From a virus, in IMG/VR virus record IMGVR_UViG_3300029705_000156: a stretch of DNA of 55,636 bases; one strand, 5' to 3'. A program made the translations under genes and the position numbers. Below the pieces are notes generated by a model that was given only the letters and a program-made list of their open reading frames with translations, made no database searches and was not told the origin of the DNA. This document shows positions 3,744 to 5,236 of the stretch, in pieces. Numbering within the stretch: position 1 is the stretch's first letter; the number at the start of each line of letters is the position of its first letter.

Positions 3744-3975
3744 TTTGGAATTATCATACTGCGAAGATTGCGGAGATTTGGTTAAGTATAGAACCGAAGC
3801 AAGAAAAGTAAAAGAGATGTTTCACGGAAAAGAGATAGAGTACGAATTTGAGTTTGGAGTTTGTTGCAAATGCGGAGCAGAAGTTGCGACAACTATTGAT
3901 TACAACTCGAGGAAAGCAAGGGTTAAGTGCATATCATTTAATAATCTTGGCGGAAAACAATTAAGACTGGAATAA
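3736..3975 (+). CDS. Zinc-ribbon protein (YgiT/MqsA-type finger, no HTH)
   Basis: CEDCG...36 aa...CCKCG. Overlaps the upstream stop codon, suggesting translational coupling. Confidence 0.45.
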   Translation: MSNLELSYCEDCGDLVKYRTEARKVKEMFHGKEIEYEFEFGVCCKCGAEVATTIDYNSRKARVKCISFNNLGGKQLRLE

Positions 3976-4012
3976 TAATTTCCCAAAATTTTTCAAAAAA
4001 GGAAAAAGCGTT

Positions 4013-4315
4013 ATGGAGTATTTCAAAGAGGGAGTTAGGTTTAAAATTATTGAAAAATATCCGTATGTTTCTGTTAGCGTCACAAAGGAAGATGTGATTT
4101 TATACGCAAAAACAAATGGATTTACATACTGTGATTTTGAAAACAGTGTGGTCGCCCGGTCAGGTTTAATTCCGTTTATGAACCTTGTTGGTTTGAAATA
4201 CGGATGGTTAAATAATTTTAGAAAAATGCACGGATATAAAAAGATTAATAGAAATTTGCTAATTGAAAAAGCAAAAAATCCTAATTGTTGTTTCGTGTAT
4301 AGCAATGATAAATAA
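4013..4315 (+). CDS. Hypothetical protein
   Basis: 100-aa track ORF. The stop codon abuts the tRNA. Confidence 0.5.
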   Translation: MEYFKEGVRFKIIEKYPYVSVSVTKEDVILYAKTNGFTYCDFENSVVARSGLIPFMNLVGLKYGWLNNFRKMHGYKKINRNLLIEKAKNPNCCFVYSNDK

Positions 4316-4387
4316 AGCCCCTTCGTCAAGCGGTAAGACGCAAGATTTTGATTCTTGTATACATTGGTTCGAATCCAATAGGGGCTG
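4316..4387 (+). tRNA. tRNA-Gln (anticodon TTG)
   Basis: Hand-folded cloverleaf. 7-bp acceptor agcccct/aggggct, D arm with GG, perfect 5-bp anticodon stem caaga/tcttg with loop TT-TTG-AT, and T arm attgg-TTCGAAT-ccaat. Confidence 0.85.
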
Positions 4388-4857
4388 TTCGATTTTGTCT
4401 TAAGTTCATTTGGCAAAATCTCCTTTCAATGTAGCCCACTAGCGGAATGCTGATTAAAGAACCGTCAAAAGGTTCGGTGGGTTTATCCATTTGTGATTGC
4501 AAGCACAGAGAAAACGGTGAAACCTATTAGCGCAATAGGGGGTACAGGCGTTGAGCATACCGCTGGTTGGGAGCACCTGTATATTAAAACGCACAGTCCC
4601 TTGCGACAAATAAATGGGACATTTTAAAAAGTTGCAACGCCTAAATCAGTGTGACGGCGCATTCCGAGGGCAGTATTAGTGTAAATCAAGCACTCCATCG
4701 GGGGAACGGTTCAACTCCGTGTTTAGGCTTCAGTGGTGTTATTCCCACTTTAAAAACGATACGGCAGACAACGGCAACCGCGAGGAAATAGTTGTAAATT
4801 AGGGCGTTAAATCTTGCGAGTAGCACATTAACTGTGATTAGGCAAGTAGCCCATTTT
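4388..4857 (+). ncRNA. Candidate large structured noncoding RNA flanked by tRNAs (ROOL/GOLLD-class candidate)
   Basis: 470 nt with no credible ORF, and GC visibly above its surroundings. At least 9 local or long-range helices (listed in the finding), including an internal tRNA-like acceptor/T-arm mimic. Confidence 0.5.
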
Positions 4858-4932
4858 GGGGGTGTAGTTTAAATCCGGCGAGAACGCTAGATTGAAGGGC
4901 TAGTAATGCAAGTTCAAATCTTGCCGCCCCTC
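4858..4932 (+). tRNA. tRNA, tentatively Phe (GAA), atypical
   Basis: Acceptor gggggtg/cgcccct (two G-U pairs), D stem gttt/gaac with GG in the loop, T arm gcaag-TTCAAAT-cttgc. The anticodon loop TT-GAA-GG has G37 and an A31-G39 mismatch. Confidence 0.55.
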
Positions 4933-4954
4933 TTTATGAAACGGAGTTGATTTA

Positions 4955-5236
4955 GTGAAAGCAAAGACTTGTATAAACTGTGGTGCGCCATTGCATAGTA
5001 ATATTTGTGATTATTGCGGTACGGAGTATGAAATTGACGATAATTGCAACCATACGCAAAAGGGCAAGCAGATAAATGAGTTTATTTATGAGTTGGAAAT
5101 ACAAGGCAAACCATATCAGTTTTATGTTGGGGAAGTTGAAGTAAACAAACTTACTGATGTTGGCAGAGATAAAAACGGAAATGTAATATCTATTCATTTA
5201 GGCGCTAAAAGAAAATTGACTTTGATTGAGATTTAA
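4955..5236 (+). CDS. Zinc-ribbon protein
   Basis: GTG start. CINCG...CDYCG motif. Confidence 0.5.
   Translation: MKAKTCINCGAPLHSNICDYCGTEYEIDDNCNHTQKGKQINEFIYELEIQGKPYQFYVGEVEVNKLTDVGRDKNGNVISIHLGAKRKLTLIEI

Follow-up and report, generated by a model that had tools for sequence, protein, structure and literature searches.

Comparative sequence analysis points to a mosaic of small RNA modules between two tRNA genes of a gut Clostridia phage

What kind of RNA is encoded in a long gap without genes that separates two tRNA genes of a phage? We addressed this question for positions 4388-4857 of the IMG/VR virus record IMGVR_UViG_3300029705_000156, a stretch of 55,636 nucleotides to which we refer as the window and whose coordinates are used throughout; it corresponds to JGI contig Ga0224413_10008271. 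The phage is a temperate siphovirus-type of gut Clostridia (Lachnospiraceae-like hosts), and the tRNA island separates its early genes from its terminase module, with an integrase gene upstream and the terminase and portal genes downstream. ARAGORN and Rfam agree on the two tRNAs that had been proposed to flank the spacer, tRNA-Gln and a second tRNA that proved to be tRNA-Phe(GAA). The original prediction, made from the letters of the window, saw in the spacer a candidate large RNA in a setting typical of the ROOL and GOLLD classes. These RNAs are found in the tRNA islands of phages and prophages (PMC5737381; PMC12286853); they are abundant, form nanocages and are of unknown function and biogenesis (PMC12286853). 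Our comparative data show instead a mosaic of separately conserved small RNA modules that recombine as cassettes between phages. We call these modules M0, M1, M2, M3 and tail.

The spacer is non-coding. Its longest open reading frames (ORFs) on the + strand comprise 44 and 46 aa, with GTG starts, and the region bearing them is not present in L142 (Lnnn denotes fetched related loci). The sole long ORF nearby is an antisense one of 151 aa (TTG start, 3961-4416) that overlaps the tRNA, and a protein-coding test on both strands revealed no conserved ORF. The lack of a credible + strand ORF had been recognized in the original prediction, as had the enrichment in GC (0.45-0.465 over 4400-4900 vs. 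0.30-0.385 in the flanks, or about 45% vs. 33%). Its description of the region as heavily base-paired, however, does not hold for the spacer as a whole: the minimum free energy (MFE) of the 470 nt was -130.2 kcal/mol, compared to -122.95 +/- 5.68 for shuffled sequences (z -1.28), and 13 of 100 shuffles equalled it. The minus strand gave a z of +0.23. Only three pieces stood out, 4388-4430 (z -4.1), 4431-4486 (z -2.9) and 4796-4857 (z -2.7), the remaining pieces lying between -0.04 and -1.3. The neighbouring genes all share the orientation of the spacer, and no promoter-like or + strand terminator-like site was found inside it.

The assignment to ROOL or GOLLD was not borne out either. A search of the whole window with Rfam 15 at the gathering threshold returned only the two flanking tRNAs. 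At E<=10 with permissive filters, positions 4200-5050 again gave the two tRNAs only, with no match to ROOL (RF03087) or GOLLD (RF01998), while true ROOLs in related loci, which served as positive controls, scored 354-372 bits against a model threshold of 99.1 bits. We therefore reject a ROOL or GOLLD identity for the spacer. No hammerhead or other ribozyme and no riboswitch was matched in Rfam. Default ARAGORN and RF00005 at E<=10 found no third tRNA in the spacer. A transfer-messenger RNA (tmRNA) was also considered and discarded, its sole call being a spurious one by relaxed ARAGORN in L016.

Relatives of the locus were scarce. Neither the region itself nor 20 kb of the window recovered any relatives among GenBank phages by blastn and megablast, the sole match being a similarity of tRNA-Gln to an E. 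coli phage, and an IMG/VR search anchored on both flanking proteins yielded essentially nothing. Exact-protein look-ups retrieved 15 contigs with the same flanking genes (L002-L015), which match the spacer where they cover it: 12 of them span 4300-4960 at 100%, and L007 (100%) and L012 (one mismatch) are partial. Since these contigs match the spacer almost wholly, they provide no variation for covariation tests. Diverged phage contigs (L016-L021 and L142-L144) were reached through homologues of the zinc-ribbon protein of 93 aa encoded downstream; six of these contigs have tRNA-Gln and several a long non-coding stretch before the 93-aa gene. A profile of the 93-aa family found 63 distant loci in metagenomes, and the 37 that were searched contained no M1. 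An nhmmer search of 4484-4857 against 1.08 Mb of fetched loci gave no match.

The modular nature of the spacer became apparent when the window was aligned with L142; the 93-aa proteins of the two are 80% identical. From the 3′ end of the tRNA through 4484, a segment that contains M0 and M1, the two loci are about 98% identical; 4485-4795 is unrelated, with another tRNA-like element in its place in L142; and from about 4796 through tRNA-Phe and beyond, identity is about 99%. The tRNA-Gln(UUG) alleles a few bases upstream of the near-identical M0/M1 clearly differ (window 4316-4387 vs. L142:996-1067), which places a recombination breakpoint right at the 3′ end of the tRNA. That L142 keeps both ends of the spacer and swaps the middle argues against a single large RNA and shows the spacer to be a recombining mosaic of exchangeable cassettes. 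The order tRNA-Gln, M0/pyrimidine tract, M1, variable body, M2 and tRNA-like element recurs in the window, L016, L017, L019, L048, L145 and L149, with the last element confirmed as tRNA-like in all of these lineages except L048. The modules also occur independently in other phages, with 52-333 nt between them.

M1, a three-way junction, is the best documented of the modules. A degenerate pattern of its unpaired core, which constrains nothing of the outer stem and, of the inner stem, only a minor part of the 5′ strand, matched at least 117 IMG/VR contigs and five Clostridia genomes or metagenome-assembled genomes (MAGs), namely Lachnospira intestinalis, Faecalimonas, Eubacterium, a Lachnospiraceae MAG and a Clostridia MAG. 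The motif occurs in 55 distinct contexts, and the core conserved among relatives reads CCCAC-UAGCGGAAWGCUGAUUAAAG-stem-GUCAMAA-stem-G-GUGGG. Among 31 distinct sequences, 99.8% of the cells were paired, and compensatory changes were seen at 7 of the 14 pairs, with up to 5 pair types per position. None of 500 shuffles reached the observed score, and sliding the register cut pairing to 22-46%. The MFE structure of 4431-4486 was the same as the comparative model. The U.G pair closing P1 is invariant and about 20 other cells are G.U, indicating that the + strand is the RNA strand. R1, a covariance model of M1, detected the window copy at 4433-4488 (75.4 bits, E 5.5e-20) and exactly one M1 per locus in 100 of 100 loci. 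As judged from this covariation, M1 is under selection for RNA structure on the + strand, and the same is shown below for M2. The motif is widespread and apparently undescribed, and it is not in Rfam 15.

The only GenBank record with M1 is Dulem virus 39 (PP511791.1), in which R1 found a diverged copy (61 bits) after tRNA-Ser. In this locus (L254, PP511791.1: 55113-58171), small coding sequences annotated as 'hypothetical protein' cover four unannotated tRNAs and M1, and are likely to be over-calls.

In its architecture, M1 resembles a tRNA that lacks the anticodon arm. On the 3′ strand, P1 and P3 follow each other with no nucleotide between them, and they add up to 11-12 bp; in our model they would be stacked as an acceptor/T-like helix. 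The length of these coaxial helices, the continuous 3′ strand and the strong covariation are those of a tRNA 'top half'. In addition, the P2 loop carries GG like a D loop, and the P3 loop carries a U-N-N-N-A pentad that could form a T-loop. At E<=10, covariance models of tRNA and of mascRNA gave no match to M1. The loops and the junction are near-invariant in sequence. A hammerhead was ruled out for M1, as the layout of the three-way junction does not fit. It should be noted that the P3 loop of the window (GUCAAAA, 4464-4470) is complementary at 7 of 7 positions, one of them G.U, to the anticodon loop of tRNA-Gln (UUUUGAU, 4346-4352). In other phages GUCACAA faces CUUUGAU, with 3-4 pairs only, and the usual loop contains the Gln codon CAA; the complementarity in the window is a single case and could be a coincidence.

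M1 has a recurrent genomic setting. A tRNA-Gln(UUG) lies 44-99 nt upstream in 30 of the 55 distinct loci; tRNAs for Leu, Lys or Ser or a suppressor tRNA are occasionally found there, and the commonest M1 lineage has no tRNA upstream. No gene for an RNA-processing enzyme is linked to M1. In nine loci (L071, L085, L029, L045, L067, L082, L112, L132 and L147), a true ROOL follows M1 directly. The junction is sharp: in L071, P1 of M1 ends at 1583 and the closing helix of ROOL starts from 1584. The order is tRNA-Gln, M1, ROOL in L029, L067, L082, L112, L132 and L147, and in L085 and L045 the next tRNA abuts the 3′ end of ROOL or overlaps it by 1-2 nt. L147 is a prophage of Lachnospira intestinalis CLA-AA-H89B (contig NZ_JBBMFS010000001.1), with tRNA-Gln, M1 and ROOL at L147:3958-4676. 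M1 and a tRNA thus enclose ROOL with nucleotide precision. We found no account of a tRNA-like element on the 5′ side of ROOL in the ROOL discovery paper, in the cryo-EM paper or in full-text literature searches. A scan of IMG/VR with a ROOL-core pattern gave 41 pattern-only loci, probably in part chance matches, and none had M1. Elsewhere, M1 is followed by 95-300 nt and then a tRNA, or by more tRNAs and tRNA-like elements (L057). The 544-nt gap after M1 in L057 and L136 was considered as a second large RNA and dismissed, because it holds further tRNAs and tRNA-likes.

That ROOL fills the slot after M1 in nine other loci (here 4482-4857), together with the phage setting and the adjoining tRNAs (Gln and Phe), could be taken to mean that the spacer holds a diverged or truncated ROOL or GOLLD. 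Beyond this context, nothing that we found favours such a relationship. Neither RF03087 nor RF01998 was matched, even with permissive filters; only 374 nt are left after M1, compared to about 558 nt for ROOL, and they show no similarity by nhmmer to the fetched loci; the MFE structure consists of local hairpins, with no conserved global fold. Unlike ROOL and GOLLD, the segment is modular, recombining and unconserved. We consider this explanation to be effectively refuted already. What does stand from the original prediction is that the spacer contains real, conserved structured RNA in the phage tRNA-island setting typical of ROOL and GOLLD.

Two Rfam families, skipping-rope (RF02924) and int-alpA (RF02996), occur in the same islands as M1 (L032, L055, L069, L025, L096, L136 and L149). 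Like M1, these are small RNAs of high conservation whose function is unknown; they differ in structure and sequence from M1 and M2, which Rfam 15 lacks. A type II hammerhead ribozyme (59.1 bits) was seen at L145:2005-2073 on the minus strand, about 3.4 kb from the M1/M2 island of this Clostridia MAG prophage.

M2, which folds as an H-type pseudoknot, has homologues in L016, L017, L019, L048, L115, L145 and L149. In six diverged homologues, both stems are 100% paired and 3 of the 5 pairs of stem 1 (S1) are fully compensatory (CUGCA/UGCAG vs. CUAUG/CAUAG). In the window, one more S1 pair has changed, being C-G in place of U-A, and a coordinated insertion of C and G makes stem 2 (S2) one pair longer. 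The pairing is that expected of an H-type pseudoknot, for a small set of 6-8 sequences. The covariance model R2 had its best match in the whole window at 4584-4624 (17.4 bits, E 0.059), so that the M2 of the window is to be seen as divergent. Compared to M1, M2 is far less frequent: R2 matched 5 of 100 loci, the M1-bearing ones being only the three homologue loci behind R2, and an M2 pattern had no matches in IMG/VR and none in metagenome contigs, a collection that evidently does not include the window contig itself. M2 ends 1 nt before the tRNA-like element in relatives and 4 nt before a real tRNA in L115, a placement of 1-4 nt that holds in 6 lineages, compared to 18 nt before the tRNA-like element in the window.

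Table 1. Features of the spacer and its borders in window coordinates, with ROOL borders in two related loci (named in the first column).
Feature	Position	Strand	Description
tRNA-Gln(UUG)	4316-4387	+	5′ border; ARAGORN; Rfam RF00005 61.9 bits; CCA not encoded
M0 9-bp hairpin	4391-4420 (4391-4399/4412-4420)	+	directly after tRNA-Gln; MFE -9.1 kcal/mol, z -4.09
Unpaired pyrimidine tract	4419-4427	+	UCUCCUUUC; anti-Shine-Dalgarno-like; reverse complement reads like a Shine-Dalgarno sequence
M1 three-way junction	4435-4481	+	covariation, covariance model R1, MFE of 4431-4486
M1 P1	4435-4440 with 4476-4481	+	6 bp; seventh pair in some sequences
M1 P2	4441-4443 with 4449-4451	+	AGC/GCU; loop GGAAU (family GGAAW)
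M1 J2/3	4452-4458	+	GAUUAAA, 7-nt junction
M1 P3	4459-4463 with 4471-4475	+	5 bp; 7-nt loop GUCAAAA (family GUCAMAA)
Variable body	4482-4589	+	local hairpins including 4542-4548/4576-4582, then A-rich linker; z -0.24 to -0.92
M2 H-type pseudoknot	4590-4620	+	CGCA-CAGUCCCU-UGCG-ACAAAUAAAU-GGGAC
M2 S1	4590-4593 with 4602-4605	+	covarying stem 1
M2 S2	4596-4600 with 4616-4620	+	conserved, G.U variants
M2 L3	4606-4615	+	A-rich
M3 tRNA-like element	4639-4729	+	MFE cloverleaf; z -1.33
M3 acceptor	4639-4646 with 4721-4728	+	8 bp
M3 T arm	4706-4709 with 4717-4720	+	4 bp; loop UUCAACU
Linker	4730-4795	+	uncharacterised; hairpin 4732-4736/4745-4749; z -0.04
Tail nested hairpin	4796-4857	+	4802-4805/4849-4852, 4813-4817/4842-4846, 4824-4827/4833-4836; z -2.71
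tRNA-Phe(GAA)	4858-4932	+	3′ border; ARAGORN; Rfam 49.3 bits
ROOL in L085	2239-2797
tRNA in L085	2156-2240
ROOL in L045	1604-2161
tRNA in L045	1521-1605

The complementary segments and direct repeats quoted in the original prediction are all present in the sequence, and several of its helices gained comparative support from this analysis: 4391-4397/4414-4420 (in M0), 4433-4439/4477-4483 and 4459-4463/4471-4475 (both in M1), 4596-4600/4616-4620 (stem 2 of M2) and 4639-4645/4722-4728 with its T arm (in M3). For the helix 4543-4548/4576-4581 the support is by analogy, as relatives have stems in this position. The helices 4523-4528/4534-4539 and 4732-4736/4745-4749 gained no comparative support, since no homologue of either segment was found. 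The proposed long-range pairing of 4497-4503 with 4813-4819 fared less well, as L142 lacks the 5′ partner though it keeps the 3′ partner. The direct repeats of 7-8 nt are real, but at chance level in 470 nt (by our estimate, about 1.7 8-mer repeats would be expected).

Upstream of M1, a hairpin of different sequence occupies the place of M0 in 54 distinct M1 loci (mean z -2.4), with some pairs G.U on the + strand. The 14 nt before M1 are on average 72% pyrimidine over the 54 loci, with the consensus CCUCCUUUC. This consensus (4419-4427 in the window; L025-L141) equals the 3′ tail of Firmicute 16S rRNA, i.e. the anti-Shine-Dalgarno (anti-SD) sequence. In L016 and L017, the tract is exactly complementary to the GAAAGGAG ribosome-binding site (RBS) of the downstream 93-aa gene. 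A pairing of the tract with the GGAAW loop of M1 was discarded, since the A/U variation of the loop is unmatched upstream. The SD and ATG look-alikes on the minus strand also raised the possibility of a minus-strand gene or leader. The ORFs that would follow show no consistency among loci, with lengths between 1 aa and over 58 aa and several extending beyond the 200 nt examined, and they often run antisense through the tRNA; furthermore, the U.G pair that is invariant in M1, and some 20 other G.U cells, would become A.C mismatches. These inconsistent ORFs and the G.U evidence led us to reject a minus-strand gene or leader.

A different role for this region would be in cis, with M1 and the pyrimidine tract controlling transcription or translation of the late (terminase) operon, for example by antitermination of the put or EAR type or by sequestration of an RBS. 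M1 is indeed always co-oriented with the late genes, lying about 2.7 kb before the gene for the terminase large subunit and after those for MazG and DUF3310; its unpaired nucleotides are extremely conserved; and the tract is exactly complementary to a strong Firmicute SD, matching the GAAAGGAG of the downstream RBS in L016 and L017. However, M1 is separated from the next gene by tRNAs, ROOL and other RNAs, a terminator that could be read through is not consistently present, and the downstream RBS of the window (ACGGAG) matches the tract weakly. We think that such a control element is very unlikely.

The RBS of the 93-aa gene is also where another conserved non-coding element, M4, was encountered. 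M4 is absent from the window and measures about 110-190 nt (L016:2313-2500, L017:1270-1453, L143:1343-1500, L144:66-230, L020:905-1056 and L021:1436-1545). It ends exactly at this RBS in four phages, with the 3′ motif AAACUGCACAG-AUAGGAG. At least three of its stems covary by eye, among them UCGGG/CCCGA vs. UCUAGG/CCUAGA vs. UUGGG/CCCAA and a second one, CUGAUAGUGG/CCACUAUCAG vs. CUGACAUAGG/CCUAUGUCGG, and its loop CGUAGCGGAAAUC resembles the UAGCGGAAAGC of M1. No Rfam family matched M4 at E<=5; it could act as a leader or in the manner of a riboswitch, or be a further RNA of the island. The otherwise diverged islands of L020 (1238-1310) and L143 (1103-1180) have in common a non-coding block, CUUUAUCCGYGGAGAUAAGACUACACCGUGAU...GGUGGGUAACGGAUAG.

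Downstream of M2, M3 had been rightly picked out in the original prediction as a tRNA-like module with an acceptor and a T arm and without canonical D or anticodon arms. The acceptor and T arm form a 12-bp stack with a UUCRANY T loop, as in a tRNA, while the anticodon arm is replaced by an elongated middle arm with a 7-nt loop, AAAUCAA, which has an A at the U33 position; the homologous loop in L143 has 11 nt. Neither default ARAGORN nor RF00005 at E<=10 called M3 a tRNA, and only relaxed ARAGORN (-ps80) reported it, as 'tRNA-Thr(agu)' with a 19-nt intron. Its T-arm 22-mer had no matches in IMG/VR. M3-type elements follow M2 in L016, L017, L019, L145 and L149, and another takes the equivalent position in L142, where M2 is missing. 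These elements are unrelated in sequence, yet their acceptor and T helices are intact, often of 8+6 bp, and several have a class-II-like D arm, UG-GCG-GAAUGUGUAGA-CGC. The tail travels together with tRNA-Phe in the L142 alignment, and 4806-4847 is colinear with tRNA-Phe from the D arm to the T stem (z 3.3, p ~0.009), suggesting that the tail is probably a truncated tRNA duplicate. The colinear alignment of M3 with tRNA-Phe is weaker (z 2.3, p ~0.04). Both M3 and the tail are, on this evidence, probably tRNA-derived. Two other unusual tRNA-like elements were noted in related loci, a 130-nt 'tRNA' with an insertion of about 55 nt (L016:2184-2313, 39 bits to the tRNA model) and a 46-nt mini tRNA-like element (L020:738-783), to which the vertebrate mascRNA model assigns 29.5 bits.

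Could the spacer apart from M1 then simply be evolutionary debris, i.e. functionless decayed or truncated tRNA genes and recombination scars? The tRNA-Phe alignments of the tail and, weakly, of M3 point this way, as does the fact that the middle of the spacer is dispensable in L142, that most sub-segments fold no better than shuffles and that M3 is seen by ARAGORN only as a pseudogene-grade tRNA with an 'intron'. For 4482-4589 and 4730-4857, tRNA debris is plausible. No homologue of 4482-4589 was found by nhmmer outside the identical contigs, and the linker 4730-4795 likewise has no homologues by nhmmer and is absent from L142. As an account of the whole, debris is difficult to reconcile with the compensatory changes of M2 across lineages, with the perfect acceptor and T helices that M3-type elements keep despite sequence turnover, at a fixed place after M2, with the retention of M0 hairpins of different sequence, or with the raised GC over the entire spacer; we judge it to be improbable. 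Decayed tRNA pseudogenes had been named in the original prediction as a finding that would count against it; M3 and the tail partly answer to this description, and M1 and M2, which covary, do not.

A further possibility is that M0, M1, the body, M2 and M3 (about 4388-4729, some 340 nt) form one composite RNA with tRNA-like ends, in which the middle would be variable and the pseudoknot would stack on the 3′ tRNA-like domain. The same ordered set is present in 7 lineages, of which L048, L145 and L149 were found through M1 alone, and M2 and M3 keep a fixed spacing of 1 nt in 5 lineages, which suggests coaxial stacking rather than a cleavage site. On the other side, the body differs in length (52-333 nt) and shows no similarity that we could detect, relatives having an unrelated one at the same place that usually ends in a stem and an A-rich linker before M2. 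Most of the at least 117 M1 contigs are without M2 or M3, L142 has M1 and no M2, the M2 of L115 precedes an ordinary tRNA about 620 nt from M1, and no long-range covariation was seen. A composite RNA thus appears unlikely to us; if it were real, it would be a new mid-sized class of phage RNA, comparable to the upstream pseudoknot domain plus tRNA-like structure (TLS) of viruses.

The explanation that we favour, and hold to be probable by a modest measure, is that 4388-4857 is a co-transcribed island of tRNAs and non-coding RNAs, in which the row M0-M3 would be processed at tRNAs and tRNA-likes by RNase P and RNase Z. The elements follow one another in the order tRNA-Gln, M0, CCUCCUUUC-like tract, M1, body, M2, M3, linker, tRNA-Phe-derived hairpin and tRNA-Phe. 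The island would be transcribed as one long precursor, which the host enzymes RNase P (on the 5′ side) and RNase Z (on the 3′ side) would cut at the tRNAs and the tRNA-like modules, a form of tRNA punctuation; at M1 or M3, cleavage is predicted purely from their shape. In the short RNAs so released, M0/M1 would shield the 5′ ends, and the 3′ ends would be secured within the M2 pseudoknot, a short way 5′ of the site cut by RNase P. M1 and the downstream tRNA frame ROOL to the nucleotide in other phages, and this exact bracketing is what we see as the best support for the processing model. A released RNA with the anti-SD-like tract might even act on ribosome-binding sites, although this is speculation.

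Several observations weigh against processing at these modules. M1 and M3 are not matched by tRNA or mascRNA covariance models, and the M3-type elements of relatives have acceptor and T stacks of 13-14 bp, compared to the canonical 12. A pseudoknot 1 nt from the cleavage site could hinder RNase P. The near-invariance of the M1 loops and junction goes beyond what a simple processing signal would call for, and hints at a specific partner or another activity. Since a real tRNA-Gln is already present about 50 nt upstream, M1 is not strictly needed as punctuation, and the recurring M1...M2-M3 order is also compatible with the composite RNA.

The proposed processing has counterparts in other systems. 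At the 3′ end of MALAT1 and MEN-beta, a triple-helix element (ENE) lies upstream of the tRNA-like mascRNA (RF01684), which is cut by RNase P and RNase Z. M2, a compact element with an A-rich strand directly 5′ of the tRNA-like M3, is similarly placed, and by analogy a cut by RNase P would leave a 3′ end buried in structure. There is no homology: the spacer belongs to a bacterial phage and not to a vertebrate long non-coding RNA, and M2 is a small H-type pseudoknot and not a U-rich ENE. The tRNA cluster of T4 encodes species 1 and 2 (rnaC and rnaD), stable RNAs of 120-140 nt and of unknown function. They too are small RNAs that are transcribed together with phage tRNAs and acquire their mature form through the tRNA-processing machinery, which for the spacer is only proposed; they are single units with no sequence or structure relationship to it, whereas here there are several distinct modules, in Clostridia phages. 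Lastly, tRNA-like structures without an anticodon arm are known from the tRNA-like domain of tmRNA, the module of the bacterial Y RNA YrlA and plant-virus TLSs. M1 resembles them in its predicted acceptor/T-like coaxial helix, its D-like and T-like loops and its lack of an anticodon arm, and M2 with M3 recalls the upstream pseudoknot domain followed by the TLS in plant viruses. M1 and M3 differ from all of these in having no Rfam match, no tag ORF and no encoded CCA, and M1 is internal to the transcript.

A bolder reading, which we put forward tentatively and regard as possible and no better than that, is that M1, together with the preceding hairpin and CCUCCUUUC tract, represents a new and widespread class of phage RNA, a mimic of a tRNA lacking the anticodon arm, that defines the mature 5′ ends of ROOL and other island RNAs, as a processing handle or a cap, and that possibly targets ribosome-binding sites, with M2 and the tRNA-like element as a counterpart of MALAT1/mascRNA.

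More generally, this locus illustrates that a GC-rich, ORF-free gap beside phage tRNAs can be a recombining row of small modules. The addition of M1 and M2 to Rfam would improve the annotation of gut phages, where GenBank has 'hypothetical proteins' over M1. Finally, the location of M1 at the 5′ end of ROOL and of a tRNA at its 3′ end provides a concrete, testable model for the excision of ROOL from tRNA-island precursors.

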